Below are positions 53,797 to 64,000 of a stretch of 64,000 nt of DNA, piece by piece (position 1 is the first letter of the stretch; the number at the start of each line of letters is the position of its first letter). This DNA is from an uncultured virus (IMG/VR IMGVR_UViG_3300036716_000812) (Duplodnaviria; Heunggongvirae; Uroviricota; Caudoviricetes). The notes under the pieces are model-generated. The model did not search any database and was not told the DNA's origin. It saw only the letters and a program-made list of their open reading frames with translations. The position numbers and the translations under genes were made by a program. Location of the stretch: the IMG/VR virus record IMGVR_UViG_3300036716_000812; one strand, given 5' to 3'.

Positions 53797-53828
53797 ACTT
53801 GACAACCGTCAAGTTTTTATGTTATAAT
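53797..53828 (+). promoter_or_regulatory. Sigma70 promoter (TTGACA-18-TATAAT) for the sigma/gp47/gp46 operon, with a palindrome over -35
   Basis: ACTTGAC-AACC-GTCAAGT inverted repeat; TGTTATAAT extended -10. Confidence 0.75.
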
Positions 53829-53854: not shown

Positions 53855-54724
53855 ATGGCAAGACGACAAAACTATTTAAATAACAAAGATATGTTGAAAC
53901 AAATACATATTTCTAAGTCAAACTATTCTTGGTTCGAAGATAGAGACAAACACCACCAGCATGATATTATTCTGTATTCAACTAAAGAAATTGCTGATTC
54001 TGTGGAACAAGCAAGACAAAATAAAGCAAAACGCTTACAAAAATTGGCTTGGGATGCGAATGATGACAAGAAATTAAAGCAAGTAGATTTTGAAGTTGAC
54101 CCTACTTCTTTCACCGAAGACGAAATTGTCTTTCGTGTGATGACATTCGAACATATTCCAGATGAACCTGGACGTAAAGCAAATCCTAAAACTGTCGCTG
54201 ACCATAAAGTAAAATTGCCATTTCCTTCATTCAAGCACTATACATTTGTAGATGGAAAACTTAACGAAGTAGGAATATCGCATCATAATAAAGAGAAAGA
54301 ATTTGATTTAAGTGCTGGTAAAATTACCGCGGTATTGGCAACGATGTATATCAAACTAGTAGAAAGATACTCTCAGAGGTCAAACTGGCGAGGATACACA
54401 TACATTGATGAAATGAGAGGACAAGCATTGCTCCAATTAGCACAAATTGGACTACAATTTAATGAAGATAAGAGTGATAATCCATTTGCTTACTACACAA
54501 CAGTAGTGAATAATTCATTCACTCGTGTTCTTAACATAGAAAAGAAAAATCAAGGCATACGTGATGACTTGCTCGAAAAAGCAGGACAGGCGCCAAGTTG
54601 GACAAGACAATTGGCACACGAAATGAAATCTCAGGAGCGTTGGCAGAAAGTCGTCAAAACAAAAATTACAGACGATGCTATTCCAACAGAAACCATTAAA
54701 GAGATTTATGCCGACAATGACTAA
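53855..54724 (+). CDS. Late-transcription sigma factor (T4 gp55-like)
   Basis: NYLNNKDML, RSNWRGYTYIDEM, FNEDKSDNPFAYYT..NSFTR..IEKKNQ; synteny with gp47/gp46. Confidence 0.85.
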   Translation: MARRQNYLNNKDMLKQIHISKSNYSWFEDRDKHHQHDIILYSTKEIADSVEQARQNKAKRLQKLAWDANDDKKLKQVDFEVDPTSFTEDEIVFRVMTFEHIPDEPGRKANPKTVADHKVKLPFPSFKHYTFVDGKLNEVGISHHNKEKEFDLSAGKITAVLATMYIKLVERYSQRSNWRGYTYIDEMRGQALLQLAQIGLQFNEDKSDNPFAYYTTVVNNSFTRVLNIEKKNQGIRDDLLEKAGQAPSWTRQLAHEMKSQERWQKVVKTKITDDAIPTETIKEIYADND

Positions 54725-58311: not shown

Positions 58312-58902
58312 ATGGAAGAATATATTCCAAAATTCTTAGATATGCTTTATGATAATGAGATTGGAAAACATCTCACTATTGAAGAAGTGCGGGACGCATT
58401 TCATACAAATCAGATTGAAAGTAAAAAACAAGCAAGTCTAGCCTTTGGGGCAGTCAGCGATAATGCAAATAAAGTTTTGTATATCGGCTCTTGGCTAGGC
58501 TTTCTTACTCATGTGTTGATTGAAAAATATCCATCTATAAACTTCTACGAAGTTGACATGGACACACGATGCAAAGAAGTAAGTGGCAGATTCAATTATA
58601 CATTTAAGAATTATCTAGGACATCAAAGTGCAAACATTGAGGATAAAAACTTCAATATGTGGCATGAATTTGATACTATCATTAATCTTAGTTGTGAACA
58701 CATGTCTACAAATTGGTATCATAAAGTTGCATCAGGAACACAACTTATTATACAAAGTAATAACCTCGTAATTGACGACCATATAAACAATTGTGAATCA
58801 CTAGATGATTTCAAAAGCAAATATCCTCTCAGTAAGATACATTACGACACTACATTAGAACTTAACGTATTCAATAGATTTACTTTGTCTGGCGTAAAAT
58901 AA
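58312..58902 (+). CDS. Class I SAM-dependent methyltransferase-like protein
   Basis: VLYIGSWLG, EVDMD, IINLSCEHM, IQSNN..DHINN. Confidence 0.65.
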   Translation: MEEYIPKFLDMLYDNEIGKHLTIEEVRDAFHTNQIESKKQASLAFGAVSDNANKVLYIGSWLGFLTHVLIEKYPSINFYEVDMDTRCKEVSGRFNYTFKNYLGHQSANIEDKNFNMWHEFDTIINLSCEHMSTNWYHKVASGTQLIIQSNNLVIDDHINNCESLDDFKSKYPLSKIHYDTTLELNVFNRFTLSGVK

Positions 58903-58920
58903 CGAATCATAAATACTGGT

Positions 58921-59559
58921 ATGAGTATATTTGTTATTATATTGCTGGGATTTATTTGGTATCAATTCATCAGTGTAATTGGTCTATCTATTGGATTGCA
59001 TAGATATTTTGCACATAATCAGTTTAAATTTAAATATCTTTCTTCATTTTGGGAGACATTAGTTTTATTTCTGTCGTTATTAGCAGGGTCACGAAGTCCA
59101 CTAGGATGGATTGGCGCACATAGAATTCACCATAGATATTCTGATACTGAAAAAGACCCACATAGTCCATTACATATAGGATTTTTTAATGTACTATTCA
59201 GTAGTTGGAAAGTGAAAGAGATTCCTATAAAATACGTTAGGGATTTATATGAAAATAAAAGAGTTATGTTTTTTCATAGACATTGGAAAAATATATGGGG
59301 AATTACAGGAATAATTTCTTTACTGATATCGTCAGACTTCTTTCTTATATTTGTAGTTTCTCCTTTCATATTTGGATGGTTAAGTTTTGGTATATTCAAC
59401 GCACTGGGTCACAAAGATGGAAAGCCAGTAACTAATAGATTTATAAATCTTTTATCTGGCGGAGAAGGACCACACGATGTTCATCATAGTAATAGTAAGC
59501 AGATAAGATTAAGTAAGTACGATATATCAGGAATTATAATTGAAAAGTGTTTAAAATAG
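58921..59559 (+). CDS. Membrane-bound fatty acid (delta-9-like) desaturase
   Basis: His boxes HRYFAH, HRIHH, HDVHH; DPHSP; hydrophobic segments. Confidence 0.88.
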   Translation: MSIFVIILLGFIWYQFISVIGLSIGLHRYFAHNQFKFKYLSSFWETLVLFLSLLAGSRSPLGWIGAHRIHHRYSDTEKDPHSPLHIGFFNVLFSSWKVKEIPIKYVRDLYENKRVMFFHRHWKNIWGITGIISLLISSDFFLIFVVSPFIFGWLSFGIFNALGHKDGKPVTNRFINLLSGGEGPHDVHHSNSKQIRLSKYDISGIIIEKCLK

Positions 59560-60065
59560 TAGAAGAAGCGCCACCTCAATGGTTACTTGATGACATAGCA
59601 GGCGGTAATGATAAACTAAAAGACAATTATACATTAGAAAATATAAAGTTACAAGAAATGATATGTTTCTGTATGTTGATGTATAATGATGATATAGTTG
59701 GGTTCAGTGGATTACAACGTAAGCCATTAGCACCAGAGCCTTTTGGTGATTGGGAAGACAACACACCAAGGGTTAATTCACGTTGTTATATAGCACCAAA
59801 GTTTAGACAATATAAAATAAGAGGCGATAGAATTCGTTATCCATGGAAATATCTAGCACCATATCAGATTAGAATGGCAGATAAAATGGGTTACAATAAG
59901 TTATTCTGGTCAACAGAACTATATAAACGTCAAGGAAAAACCATGGACTTGACAATCGAATACGCAAAAGAATATTTGCCAGAGAACTGGCACTACAACA
60001 GATTAGAAGGTTATAGAGATATAAATGGAGTTGAACAAGAAGTATGCGAGATATTAAAATCATAG
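59547..60065 (+). CDS. Hypothetical protein, possibly GNAT-like
   Basis: IVGFSG..RVNSRCYIAPKFR pattern loosely resembles acyltransferases. Confidence 0.45.
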   Translation: MFKIVEEAPPQWLLDDIAGGNDKLKDNYTLENIKLQEMICFCMLMYNDDIVGFSGLQRKPLAPEPFGDWEDNTPRVNSRCYIAPKFRQYKIRGDRIRYPWKYLAPYQIRMADKMGYNKLFWSTELYKRQGKTMDLTIEYAKEYLPENWHYNRLEGYRDINGVEQEVCEILKS

Positions 60066-60661
60066 ATAACATTCATACAAAAGAAGAATTTATAAAAGAA
60101 TTAGAAAAGTATGGAACAGTTAACAGAGATATAGACTTACCAGTCATTACAAGTAAAGAGACTAAAGAAGTCACTGAACAAATTTGGCACCAAGATGGTT
60201 TACAGATAGAAAACCAACCACAGTACCAAGCACTATGGTGTTCACATGCTGAAGAAGAATGTCCATCTACACAATATGTTTCTACAAGAATATCAGAAGA
60301 AGAGGCTCTAAAGCACATTGATGTCATAGAGGGTTATGAGTTCAAAGAAGCAATTGATGATGGATTGTTTTATAGATTTGAAAAAGAATCACATAAAAGA
60401 TATTATTTAAAAAAGATTTACAAAGGTAAAAGACCAATCATTCTACAAGACGATATAGGTTATTACACTAGATGGTGTCCAATGTCATCATATAAAAACG
60501 AAACGTTAGAAGAAGCAGTCTTTAAAAACGAAATACAAGAAATAGAGTGGATATCTGGTAGAGTTGTGATATCAAACAACATTGCAACGTTACATAGAAG
60601 AACTCCAAACAAGAATGTGGCGGGAACAAGAAGTCTTTATAGAGCATATGTACACATATAA
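60044..60661 (+). CDS. TauD/TfdA-family Fe(II)/2-oxoglutarate dioxygenase
   Basis: WHQDG (HxD), W..G..VISNNIATLHRR, R.LYR. Confidence 0.75.
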   Translation: MRDIKIIDNIHTKEEFIKELEKYGTVNRDIDLPVITSKETKEVTEQIWHQDGLQIENQPQYQALWCSHAEEECPSTQYVSTRISEEEALKHIDVIEGYEFKEAIDDGLFYRFEKESHKRYYLKKIYKGKRPIILQDDIGYYTRWCPMSSYKNETLEEAVFKNEIQEIEWISGRVVISNNIATLHRRTPNKNVAGTRSLYRAYVHI

Positions 60662-60690
60662 AAAAATATTAAAAAAAACTTAAAAAACGC

Positions 60691-60719
60691 TTGACTTTGG
60701 GTTGCCAGTATGTTAGTAT
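60691..60719 (+). promoter_or_regulatory. Sigma70 promoter for the candidate sRNA
   Basis: TTGACT-17 nt-TAGTAT with extended TG and an upstream A-tract. Confidence 0.7.
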
Positions 60720-60727
60720 ATTATAAT

Positions 60728-60898
60728 CAACGGGTGCCTATGTCTCCTCTAAACCTCTCTCATCGACATAGACCTTGTTGCTTCACTCTTTAAAAGAAGA
60801 GTGGGTGGGTTAGACCTTAACGTACCACCATAAAAAGCACAAAAAGGAAACGTAAGGCGGGAAACCCAGTAGTAGAAATATTACTGGGTTTTTCTTTT
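60728..60898 (+). ncRNA. Candidate ~170-nt structured small RNA
   Basis: Own promoter and terminator, no ORF; hairpins CTATGTC/GACATAG, CACTCTT/AAGAGTG, GGTGG-GTTA/TAAC-CCACC. Confidence 0.6.
60862..60898 (+). terminator. Intrinsic terminator
   Basis: AAACCCAGTAGTA-GAAA-TATTACTGGGTTT stem (one G-U pair) followed by a T-rich tract. Confidence 0.85.
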
Positions 60899-60926
60899 GC
60901 CTAAATACAAATATTAGAGGAGTTAA

Positions 60927-61181
60927 ATGATGTCACCCCAATCAATTGAAAGAGTAAAATGGCTCGCCACGTTTATGTTCGTGTGTGCGGGAACATTGAT
61001 ATCTTTAAACTTACCACAATCTAAGTACGCATTTCCATTATTTGCATCAGGACATATAATTGCTATCTACGTCTTTACAATACTTAAAGACAAGCCGTTA
61101 ATTGTACAAAATGTATTTTTCTTATGTATTGATGTGATAGGAATATATCAGTGGGTATTAGCGCCTATATTTTTTCTTTAA
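60927..61181 (+). CDS. Small membrane protein (about three hydrophobic segments)
   Basis: 84 aa, hydrophobic; strong AGAGGAG RBS; CTAAATA upstream. Confidence 0.65.
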   Translation: MMSPQSIERVKWLATFMFVCAGTLISLNLPQSKYAFPLFASGHIIAIYVFTILKDKPLIVQNVFFLCIDVIGIYQWVLAPIFFL

Positions 61182-61602
61182 CGCTGTTTAGATACTCAGT
61201 AAGAATTTTCGAACTTCCCACTCGTACATTGATAATACCATTATAGTACTCATCTGTTTCAAGCACTCTACGGTCAAATTGTTCTTTGGCTTCTACATAA
61301 CTTAATGCGCCACGACTCGGGCAATAATGTAGAATCTCACGGGAAAATTTATCGGGACCTAATTTTTTTACGTCCGCATTCAAATGGTCAGAAGAACCCC
61401 AATAAGTTCTCCAATCACTTTCTTTATAACCACGTCTCTTGTTCTTTCTTCCTTTAAGAGGTGGTTTAGTGGTTTTAAATCTTGCTAACTTCTTACCTAT
61501 GTATTTTCTATCATTCGTAAGGTTCGTAATAAGATATACAAATCCCTCAACATTCTCAGGTAATTCATTTACAACTTCATTGTTATATGTCCATTCACTC
61601 AT
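61165..61602 (-). CDS. Minimal GIY-YIG (Seg-like) endonuclease
   Basis: GFVYLITN..RKYIGKK, YWGSS, FSREIL, E..YYNG; no C-terminal DNA-binding domain. Confidence 0.8.
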   Translation of the reverse strand: MSEWTYNNEVVNELPENVEGFVYLITNLTNDRKYIGKKLARFKTTKPPLKGRKNKRRGYKESDWRTYWGSSDHLNADVKKLGPDKFSREILHYCPSRGALSYVEAKEQFDRRVLETDEYYNGIINVRVGSSKILTEYLNSVKEKI

Positions 61603-61609
61603 GGTGTTC

Positions 61610-62212
61610 TCATTTTAATAGGTCTAAAGACCTAATATCTTCGGAAATTTCTTTTCGTTCCACTCAAAGAACATTTCCTTGATATTTCTTTTTTCCATTT
61701 AATATTATTTATTTTAATTACTTGTTCGGTTTGGAAGACACAATTGCCCATCCACTGGGCAACTGCTAATGAAACTTGTTCTTGCTCATCAGATTCTATG
61801 TCTAAGTTAGCCACTAGCAATGGCGAGGTCGGTTGACGATTCCCTCATAACTTAGTATTGCGTCTTTCGACTCAACGGCACTTTGAATAATCCACATAGA
61901 ATAAAATATCATCAAAGTTGGTAGTGTTTTTAACCTACCAGCGGTTTGTACATTTCTGTACAGTAAATACTAGTCATTCGATACCTTTAGAGTAACGAAT
62001 GTTAAAATACGAAATAAAATGTGTGGTTAACGAGAAGCAGTGTCGGATTTCACCCAACTTGTCTGAACGTATGTATAATATACGCCCTCAATCCCGAGTC
62101 GGCATCCCGACTAACAGTTCCACTATGTATTGTTTTATTGTAATCATTATTAGCCTTTGGGGATTTATATTAGAATTAAAAATTGTTTTTGAATCGATTT
62201 GTATTAGTTATG
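61610..62212 (-). ncRNA. Candidate large (~600 nt) ornate structured RNA
   Basis: About 12 hairpins; GAAA loops and G-U pairs that work on the minus strand; two possible pseudoknots; own promoter; no credible ORF. Confidence 0.65.
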
Positions 62213-62218
62213 TTGAAC

Positions 62219-62247
62219 ATACTAACATAGTGGAAAAGGGATGTCAA
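62219..62247 (-). promoter_or_regulatory. Sigma70 promoter for the large RNA / GIY-YIG transcript
   Basis: TTGACA-17 nt-TAGTAT with extended TG and an upstream A-tract. Confidence 0.8.
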
Positions 62248-62275
62248 CCCTTTTTGTAACTTTTTTTGTATTTTT

Positions 62276-62509
62276 TTATAAAATAGGTGTTCCAGCGTTT
62301 TTACTGAGTTCAAAGTTCTCAGAAACAATCTCATTTAGATATCTGATATGGTTTGCAGGCATGTTGTGCAGTTCAGATATACTGACGCCCCCTCTCATAT
62401 ACCAGGTTAGTTTATACAGTGATTTGTGTAGAGTGTCAAGTGATTTATTATAAGACTCTTGTTTCTCTAATATTTCGGCTTCGCCGGCAGTCTTCAGCCA
62501 GCGGAGGAA
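62276..62509 (-). CDS. -1-frame extension of the gp26-like gene (77 aa; WYMRGG domain, gp51-like)
   Basis: Open frame FLRWLKTAGEAEILEKQESYNKSLDTLHKSLYKLTWYMRGGVSISELHNMPANHIRYLNEIVSENFELSKNAGTPIL with no ATG in its first half. Confidence 0.7.
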   Translation of the reverse strand, partial: FLRWLKTAGEAEILEKQESYNKSLDTLHKSLYKLTWYMRGGVSISELHNMPANHIRYLNEIVSENFELSKNAGTPIL

Positions 62510-63414: not shown

Positions 63415-63460
63415 TTCAACAATAACTACGAAGTTTTTATAACTATTTTAGAGGGATTTC

Positions 63461-64000
63461 ATGGCAGACGAACAAGATGTTTTTATTTCGGGAATAAGCG
63501 GCAGTATCCAGCAATGGAGTACAGAGGCGACAGCAATGAAAATGGAAGCAATATTAAGTAAGATTTCCGCTTCAAACTCGGCAATGACGCAACTTCTCAC
63601 TGCGATAAAGAATGGCGAGGGCATGACACAGAAGCAGTTGTCTCAGGCAGTAAATGCTACAAAAACTCAGACAAAAGCAACAAATAGCGCCTCTAAAAAA
63701 GAATCACAAGATACCACAAGAACTCATGGTATATTGAAAGGGCTTTCTCAAACTTTCAAAGATGGATGGAATGGTTCGACTAGTGGTATTATTGACCAAA
63801 TGAGAAAGAGTCAGATTGAAGCATCTAGGCTAGAAAGAGACACACAGGTATTACTAAAGGCGGGCATGTCGAGGGAAGATGCGGCAGCAACAGTAAAAAC
63901 TGAAGCAAGACAAAAAAGCCAGGCAGACTTTTTCAAAAAAGCGGCGATGGGTATTATCGGTTTAATAGCCTCAGCCGAAGAGGCAACTCTGGCTGGATAT
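63461..64000 (+). CDS. 5' part of a probable tape measure protein (runs off the window)
   Basis: Open frame MADEQDVFISGISGSIQQWSTEATA..., Ala/Ser/Thr/Lys/Gln-rich and helical in character; AGAGGG RBS; adjacent to the chaperone gene. Confidence 0.55.
   Translation, partial: MADEQDVFISGISGSIQQWSTEATAMKMEAILSKISASNSAMTQLLTAIKNGEGMTQKQLSQAVNATKTQTKATNSASKKESQDTTRTHGILKGLSQTFKDGWNGSTSGIIDQMRKSQIEASRLERDTQVLLKAGMSREDAAATVKTEARQKSQADFFKKAAMGIIGLIASAEEATLAGY

Follow-up and report, generated by a model that had tools for sequence, protein, structure and literature searches.

A candidate trans-acting small RNA with an anti-Shine-Dalgarno loop in a T4-type phage lineage

T4-type phages are known to regulate expression after transcription through the proteins RegA and RegB and through cis-acting RNA hairpins. 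The present analysis deals with a non-coding RNA gene at positions 60691-60899 (+ strand) of a 64,000-nucleotide (nt) stretch from an uncultured virus (IMG/VR record IMGVR_UViG_3300036716_000812), hereafter the window, whose predicted small RNA (sRNA) exposes a pyrimidine-rich loop complementary to the translation initiation region of a remote phage gene. In T4, the genes e, soc, 49 and I-TevI carry a cis hairpin that sequesters the ribosome-binding site (RBS) in early read-through transcripts, with a late promoter inside the hairpin, as set out in the review PMC3014915. The arrangement predicted here is alike in that an anti-Shine-Dalgarno strand would block the translation of a late gene, with a late promoter just upstream of the Shine-Dalgarno sequence and a short late untranslated region (UTR), but differs in that this strand would come from a separate early gene, in trans, and, therefore, could also act on transcripts started at the late promoter and set a threshold for them. 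For T4, the same review notes the lack of any functionally characterised regulatory sRNA that acts in trans, and it invites candidates from related genomes.

Other described RNAs share part of these traits. The c4 RNA of phages P1 and P7 is a phage-encoded antisense RNA that acts in trans, pairing through short loop boxes with the initiation region of a phage mRNA and blocking its expression, although it is processed from the operon transcript of its own target and has its role in the lysogenic immunity of a temperate phage. C4 antisense RNA is needed for full repression of ant, and a binding site upstream of icd is described in the passages of PMC8198154 that concern it. Unlike c4, the present RNA has its own promoter and terminator, lies 20-30 kilobases (kb) from its predicted target, belongs to a T4-type phage taken to be lytic and has no match to the Rfam C4 family. 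Among bacteria, Yfr1 of cyanobacteria, RsaE/RoxS of Firmicutes and AbcR of alpha-proteobacteria are sRNAs with C/U-rich anti-Shine-Dalgarno loops. They too have their own promoter and terminator and direct an unpaired pyrimidine-rich seed in a hairpin loop against Shine-Dalgarno regions, whereas the RNA described here is encoded by a phage, has a phage gene as its main predicted target, would pair over 21-28 base pairs (bp), far beyond the usual seeds, and matches no Rfam family.

No description of this RNA was found in the literature outside subscription journals and supplements, and a term search of a 2025 review of phage-derived sRNAs (PMC12197685) returned neither "phage T4" nor "jumbo" nor "lytic phage". 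The "moraphages", phages of Bacteroidota (PMC12619734), were set aside as not relevant. Judged from sequence, the RNA is most likely a trans-acting regulator of a sort not yet described for T4-type phages. The reading preferred here, with a probability of roughly 0.6, is that positions 60727-60899 encode an early, trans-acting base-pairing sRNA of a lytic T4-type jumbo marine phage, which blocks the translation of a late mRNA.

A structured RNA gene with an invariant loop

The unit consists of a sigma-70-type promoter followed by four hairpins, the fourth of which is an intrinsic terminator. Its elements, together with the motif directly behind it, are as follows.

60691..60719, + strand: sigma-70-type promoter with an extended -10 element, from a consensus scan (TTGACT at 60691-60696, a 17-nt spacer, TG at 60711-60712 and TAGTAT at 60714-60719)
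60727..60899, + strand: predicted sRNA of about 173 nt, its 5' end placed from the -10 box and its 3' end from the T run of the terminator
60728..60780, + strand: P1 hairpin, whose 5' strand and loop (about 60738-60764) are the predicted seed
60745..60764, + strand: 20-nt CU-rich loop of P1, TCCTCTAAACCTCTCTCATC, two pyrimidine boxes with AAA between them
60784..60803, + strand: P2, a variable hairpin with its own complementary arms in each variant and large insertions in some, which forms in the folds of three relatives
60804..60829, + strand: P3, a nearly invariant hairpin confined to the longer "type I" forms
60832..60847, + strand: A-rich single-stranded linker of 16 nt, nearly invariant in the alignment of type I sequences
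60859..60898, + strand: intrinsic terminator from a terminator scan, with a 16-bp stem (60859-60894), a 4-nt loop and a T run
60900..60907, + strand: CCTAAATA, late-promoter-like motif of the next gene, presumably active, directly 3' of the terminator

An earlier note on this stretch, made from the letters alone, had described a promoter-to-terminator unit of about 170 nt with hairpins and without an open reading frame (ORF), as well as a pyrimidine-rich loop of 20 nt, and both were recovered at these positions. The sole ORF in the unit (27 amino acids (aa), 60710-60793) starts within the promoter, and its inner ATG (60740) is not kept, being replaced by TTTGTC, TGTGTC or ATTGTC in other variants; the unit thus has no conserved ORF, and it has its own promoter and Rho-independent terminator. 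The region of the sRNA folds with a minimum free energy of -56.7 kcal/mol (z = -4.8), a stability equalled by none of 200 shuffles, so that the fold exceeds chance. The note had also proposed a search for a known family and for covariation among homologues. The former (cmscan of 59000-62500 against 4227 Rfam families at E<=10) gave no relevant family. Within the unit, the terminator region alone was matched, by ctRNA_p42d (19.4 bits for a gathering score of 50) and SdsR_RyeB (18.8 bits for a gathering score of 38). ARAGORN detected no transfer RNA or transfer-messenger RNA in the region, and blastn gave no match in 50,697 phage records.

Relatives were gathered by exact-pattern scans with a 24-nt P1 pattern (7 viral loci), a 20-nt P3 pattern (26 viral loci) and the 21-nt loop (40 viral and 51 metagenome loci, 91 in all), and variant-loop forms occur besides. 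About 185,000 prokaryote genomes were searched for the loop 21-mer and none matched, so that neither a homologue in a host nor a copy in a prophage was found. After dropping six rows cut by contig ends from the 92 that bear the loop, the window included, the remaining 86 reduced to 39 distinct RNAs. Of these, 24 are of type I and have both P3 and the A-rich linker; the other 15 ("type II") have neither, and some of them are only about 150 nt long and made up of P1, one hairpin and the terminator. The sRNA gene is present in a single copy per contig, and there is none in phage Melnitz or in the loci of the distant relatives.

The covariation analysis shows that the stems of P1 and of the terminator covary among these homologues. 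In the alignment of the 24 type I sequences, 98.1% of the cells are paired and 12 pairs show compensatory change, which none of 500 shuffles reaches (slid controls, 40-50%). For P1, 35 distinct variants were realigned by a P1 covariance model; in this alignment, which is fitted to the model and hence biased towards structure, 92.6% of the cells are paired, 8 of the 15 pairs show compensatory change, and the covariation score is reached by 0 of 500 shuffles, with slid controls at 26-51%. The terminator helix, which is kept in type II as well, is paired in 99.4% of the cells and has 5 pairs with compensatory change among the type I sequences, in 9 of which the outer stem of P3 changes from GC to AU (P3 is missing from 15 of the 39 distinct RNAs). 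As for the linker, 13 of the 14 positions listed as invariant do not vary in type I, the exception being the first C, which varies in two sequences; it could serve as a binding site for a chaperone. In sum, the RNA is a conserved gene with real RNA structure that matches no Rfam family.

The loop is essentially invariant, whereas the stems around it vary. It was also checked in 46 loci found not by the loop but by the neighbouring protein, each with at least 250 nt of upstream sequence: the exact 21-mer is present in 39, a form with one or two differences in the other 7, and in no locus is it missing. It is also unchanged in all 15 distinct sequences picked by the P3 pattern, one of which differs 3 nt upstream of the 21-mer. 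This loop is predicted to be accessible, with a mean unpaired probability of 0.94-0.95 in three full-length relatives.

Regarding transcription, the -35 hexamer and a TGnTAnnAT box are kept in all aligned relatives, with a spacer that varies. Promoters of this class occur at five other sites in the window, one of them (at 53799) before the gene of a gp55-type late sigma factor, and the sRNA promoter is accordingly interpreted as an early one. On the 3' side, CTAAATA, which served as a landmark to delimit the RNA, occurs in every one of the 86 rows that extend far enough on that side, and many genes of the window have an xATAAATA-type motif 25-65 nt ahead of their start; T4-type late promoters resemble the CCTAAATA and xATAAATA motifs. 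Because a strong, covarying terminator with a promoter-like motif behind it separates the RNA from the next gene, the RNA appears to be a transcription unit of its own. A CTAAATA "regulon" as a mark of sRNA targets was also considered and rejected, as the motif precedes other genes that have no complementarity to the loop.

A remote gene as the predicted target

What would such a loop bind? For each ORF called in G002, G003 and G004, three related contigs of 90-99 kb with 83-89 ORFs each, the 21-nt loop was scored against the stretch from -35 to +6 around the start. In all three, the best RBS match belongs to one and the same ortholog, which encodes 232-235 aa, stands 20-30 kb away from the RNA gene, is not contained in the window and scores -20.1, -25.2 and -20.1 kcal/mol, respectively, compared with -13.4, -15.2 and -14.2 for the next best and medians of -6.4 to -7.5; of 300 mononucleotide shuffles of the loop, 1, 0 and 3, respectively, came up to the best score observed. 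With every 40-nt segment of both strands taken into account and the antisense of the RNA gene itself excluded, the UTR of this gene remains the best site in G003 and G004 and is second in G002 (-24.4 vs -24.5 kcal/mol). In the window and in all three contigs, a conserved coding site in an SbcD-like gene (window 55345 (+), G002 43265, G003 37179 (-), G004 51681) pairs with the loop at -21 to -24 kcal/mol; it is probably a chance match fixed by protein conservation.

The complementarity reaches past the loop into the 5' strand of P1. In the 8 of 8 contigs that carry both genes (6 distinct pairs), the cognate duplex comprises 21-28 bp and -25.9 to -40.0 kcal/mol, and it extends from about 5 nt past the likely late transcription start, just after the CCTAAATA motif that also precedes this gene, through a Shine-Dalgarno sequence of the GGAGGAGA type to the GTG start. 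When the whole sRNA is cofolded with the target UTR, P1 opens and an intermolecular helix forms, with a net change in free energy (ddG) of -13.2, -20.3 and -19.3 kcal/mol. The RNA combines several properties of trans-encoded base-pairing sRNAs: its own promoter and terminator, no conserved ORF, an accessible and conserved seed, and a conserved, top-ranked complementarity to a remote gene. This also bears on the earlier note, whose core idea of a trans-acting anti-Shine-Dalgarno repressor is backed by this stronger and conserved target, while the targets that it had named are weak by their energies and cofolds (see below).

A search with the target protein yielded 80 loci with 42 distinct upstream stretches, which were scored against a 23-nt loop segment as follows.

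Target protein identity of at least 80%: 12 distinct UTRs, duplex of -24.4 to -33.8 kcal/mol
Target protein identity of 73-77%: 5 distinct UTRs, duplex of -16.1 to -18.3 kcal/mol
Target protein identity of 59% or less: 25 distinct UTRs, duplex of -10.3 to -21.7 kcal/mol

A 28-nt seed gives the identical ordering of the UTR groups. The predicted strong site thus tracks the clade, and the distant relatives are without it; one of these (342 kb, 92% complete) has no antisense copy of its own UTR, and a complete relative of 342.6 kb has no match to the profile of the 84-aa protein encoded next to the RNA. Many distant homologues have instead a local hairpin in which the Shine-Dalgarno sequence is paired with bases upstream of the TAAATA motif (L208, L216, L226, L235, L239 and L254, from the roughly 80 nt upstream examined). 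In L208 the hairpin has 11 bp, and its 5' arm reproduces loop bases one to nine in cis. These cis hairpins recall the arrangement of the T4 genes e, soc, 49 and I-TevI, as described in PMC3014915.

The 232-aa protein is all-helical in an AlphaFold2 model (predicted local distance difference test (pLDDT) 80.6), and no match to it was found in Pfam or PHROG at E<0.01 or with Foldseek at E<=0.001, nor a usable one in the ESM Atlas. The record nearest to the window (G001, 32 kb) has neither the RNA nor the target gene.

The complementarity could have an origin other than regulation. If the structured RNA had another main job, as a decoy or partner of a host or phage RNA-binding protein or as a regulator of host mRNAs, its match to the late gene would be a relic, left by an inverted duplication that involved the 5' region of the latter. 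There is indeed a weak resemblance (23.7 bits) between P1 and the strand opposite the target UTR, the loop is more strictly kept than the target site, which fits an extra constraint, and type I RNAs keep an invariant P3 and linker for which no complementary site was found (exact complements of at least 11 nt to P2, P3 and the linker gave no site recurring across the window and the three contigs). A relic, however, would hardly explain why minimal type II RNAs, devoid of P3 and the linker, keep the loop and co-occur with a strong site (G004), why the site persists in 12 distinct UTR variants with diverged flanks, or why the pairing falls precisely on the Shine-Dalgarno sequence and the start codon. 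Such an origin is considered unlikely.

It could also be proposed that the shared sequence of about 27 nt acts as DNA, perhaps as an operator that a phage DNA-binding protein would recognise at the two loci, and that the RNA structure is incidental, given that both loci join this sequence with nearby promoter motifs. Nevertheless, the stems of P1, P3 and the terminator covary as RNA helices, G-U pairs included, the two copies are oppositely oriented relative to the promoters, and the copy in the sRNA gene is part of the transcript, downstream of the promoter, all of which makes a role as DNA hardly probable.

The adjacent membrane protein gene

The RNA is followed by a small gene in all 39 distinct variants, and the gene is preceded by the RNA in all 46 protein-anchored loci. 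The features of the window that bear on this gene and on the other target named by the earlier note are the following.

60914..60922, + strand: RBS region of the next gene, TTAGAGGAG, a 9-nt exact complement of CTCCTCTAA (60744-60752); weak or possible secondary target
60927..61181, + strand: gene of an 84-aa membrane protein with three helices, distantly Pnu-like (AlphaFold2 mean pLDDT 94.9)
63447-63454, + strand: TTTAGAGG, 8 nt complementary to the loop, 6 nt before the ATG at 63461; duplex of this gene, -11.1 kcal/mol

Polar residues are conserved in the 84-aa protein, whose relation to the Pnu family is no more than distant. Its Pfam matches, NMN_transporter (E 0.006, 17 bits against a cut-off of 27.3) and DUF6552 (E 0.022), are both below the cut-offs of those families. 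A profile search returned 215 representatives, and of 30 that were scanned 6 matched NMN_transporter, one of them above the cut-off; the profile matched one full-length member of that family at its C-terminal repeat. Foldseek gave no match at E<=0.001, PnuC (4qtn_A) having a TMq of 0.62 but E = 2.1 and SemiSWEET being a similarly weak row. In phage Melnitz there is a homologue, 40% identical, with no such RNA upstream.

The exact complementarity between CTCCTCTAA and TTAGAGGAG pointed out by the earlier note was found again, and the loop-RBS duplex of this gene (-13.4 kcal/mol) ranks first of 49 in the window, followed by three others at -12.4 to -13.2. Yet the values in the relatives, -10 to -14 kcal/mol (ranks 4/89 and 7/83), fall within the top 5-10% of ordinary RBSs, and full-length cofolds of the sRNA with the UTR of the 84-aa gene have a ddG of only -2.5 to -5.8 kcal/mol and leave the loop unused. 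The note's second target, upstream of 63461, does carry its 8-nt complement, but the match is unremarkable and the product, which the note had called tape-measure-like, has no PHROG match and nothing that would mark a tape-measure gene. The window contains 22 other exact matches of at least 8 nt to the complement of the loop on both strands, approximately the random expectation, and both short RBS complementarities, taken alone, are not clearly above chance. The adjacent gene may be a weak second target.

Pnu-family transporters are often controlled by riboswitches, and the constant position of the RNA could be taken to mean that it is a cis-acting leader or riboswitch, operating by termination or by sequestration of the RBS. 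The pnuC motif (NAD+-II) riboswitches are likewise structured RNAs, with a terminator, upstream of a gene for a Pnu-like membrane protein; moreover, the loop complements the RBS region of the gene in several registers, and one RNA-library contig bridges the terminator. In contrast to those riboswitches, the present RNA matches no Rfam riboswitch even at E<=10, its only universally kept element is a low-complexity loop, and its minimal forms are reduced to P1, one hairpin and a terminator with a long, conserved stem of 16 bp. Apart from a trivial GGG/CCC option with P3, visual inspection of the alignments and consensus folds, with no systematic search, revealed no switching helix or other conserved alternative pairing, an antiterminator included. 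In addition, a late-promoter-like motif intervenes between terminator and gene, the cofolds leave the loop unused, and the Melnitz homologue does without the RNA. Control in cis is hence quite improbable, and with the covarying terminator and the late-promoter-like motif in between, the attenuator envisaged in the earlier note finds no backing.

The note had also suggested antitoxin-like control, and the logic of type I toxin-antitoxin or anti-holin systems would indeed suit the strict adjacency, the small three-helix membrane product, the 9-nt exact match to its RBS in the window and the GA-rich boxes, with unusual spacing, in the UTRs of several relatives. The type I antitoxins IstR-1, OrzO and the like are also small RNA genes placed beside the gene of a small membrane protein, their toxin, and complementary, to a limited extent, to its 5' UTR. 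Here, however, the pairing predicted with the neighbour is weak: the energies are ordinary for RBSs (rank 1/52 for the window in the scan of the relatives), the gain on cofolding is small and does not involve the loop, and the strong pairing typical of type I toxin-antitoxin pairs is not seen. Conserved polar residues and a distant similarity to Pnu are not toxin-like features, and the strong target lies elsewhere. An antitoxin aimed at the neighbour is therefore very improbable.

Several features around the locus are recorded in passing. The 3' end of the 84-aa gene is overlapped by 17 nt by a SegE-like GIY-YIG homing endonuclease gene (61165-61602, - strand; Pfam 1.5e-35), and a similar homing endonuclease gene stands beside the 84-aa gene of G004. 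Beyond it, 61603-62493 comprises some 900 nt with no convincing ORF and no Rfam match, and with a minus-strand early-type promoter of the class of the sRNA promoter (first hexamer, 62247); it could be the long leader of the segE-like gene or another non-coding RNA. Upstream, from the gp46 region to the sRNA (58312-60661), there are four genes, encoding a protein of unknown function, a fatty-acid-desaturase-like protein, a second one of unknown function and a TauD-like 2-oxoglutarate (2OG) oxygenase. Several relatives are without these four genes, and there the sRNA promoter lies directly 3' of a 58-aa gene.

A possible early-to-late timer

The window encodes a gp46/gp47-like nuclease pair, a baseplate protein and a late sigma factor, and by these genes it is from a T4-type phage.

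53855-54724, + strand: gp55-type late sigma factor gene (phrog_12791, 1.4e-77), preceded by the early-type promoter at 53799

The lineage is regarded as one of jumbo phages, because CheckV estimates the sRNA-bearing contigs of 90-99 kb to be 21-27% complete and the distant relatives G007 and G008 (the genomes behind L225 and L270) reach 342 kb, one of them with terminal repeats.

In the circuit proposed for such a phage, host RNA polymerase would make the sRNA early in infection from the sigma-70-type promoter, the transcript ending at its own terminator, and late transcription would subsequently yield a short-leader mRNA for the 232-aa protein. The loop would nucleate the pairing, P1 would open, and a duplex of 21-28 bp would bury the Shine-Dalgarno sequence and the start codon. 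Because this duplex covers the mRNA from the one to the other, it would exclude the 30S subunit, and its length might in addition invite cleavage. The translation of the late protein would thus be held off until the late mRNA outnumbers the sRNA made early. The transcription of the sRNA, its timing and the direction of the regulation are predictions from sequence.

Some observations weigh against this circuit or limit its reach. The trans-pairing model leaves unexplained both the invariant P3 hairpin with the A-rich linker and the strict linkage of the RNA to the Pnu-like gene (46/46 loci). There is no two-sided covariation between sRNA and target, because the loop never varies among the pairs, and duplexes of -20 to -24 kcal/mol also occur at a few coding-region sites. 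The ORF calls and start choices come from a simple script and are crude, and since 21-27% of each related genome was covered by the scan, there may be further targets or better ones. That the genome to which the window belongs carries the target is deduced from the relatives. Finally, RNA-type library data (four runs of 13, assembled contigs only, at a depth of about 2-15, from which ends, strand and level are not readable) include a contig of a relative, of depth 15, that spans 60739-61004, starting in the loop hairpin and passing the terminator to end in the gene that follows, and another that spans 60494-60765, across the promoter. Both could be DNA carry-over or read-through and are neutral as to a discrete transcript.

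What does this candidate offer, and what would the trans-acting circuit, if correct, mean for these phages? To begin with, the defined seed, the target site and the natural variants make the idea testable in a simple two-plasmid reporter with no need for a cultured host. The RNA is a new family for the annotation of marine viral metagenomes, and two conserved proteins, the late one of 232 aa and the Pnu-like membrane protein with three helices, are flagged as worth studying. The invariant P3 and A-rich module of the longer forms could bring in a second partner. On the evolutionary side, it may tentatively be proposed, with rather less confidence than the circuit itself, that this clade moved the anti-Shine-Dalgarno arm from the mRNA into a separate early sRNA gene, which would convert it into a titratable timer, while T4 and the distant relatives of the clade keep the arm in cis, 5' of a late promoter. 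The circuit would be the first in T4-related phages in which a trans-acting sRNA controls a late gene of the phage itself.

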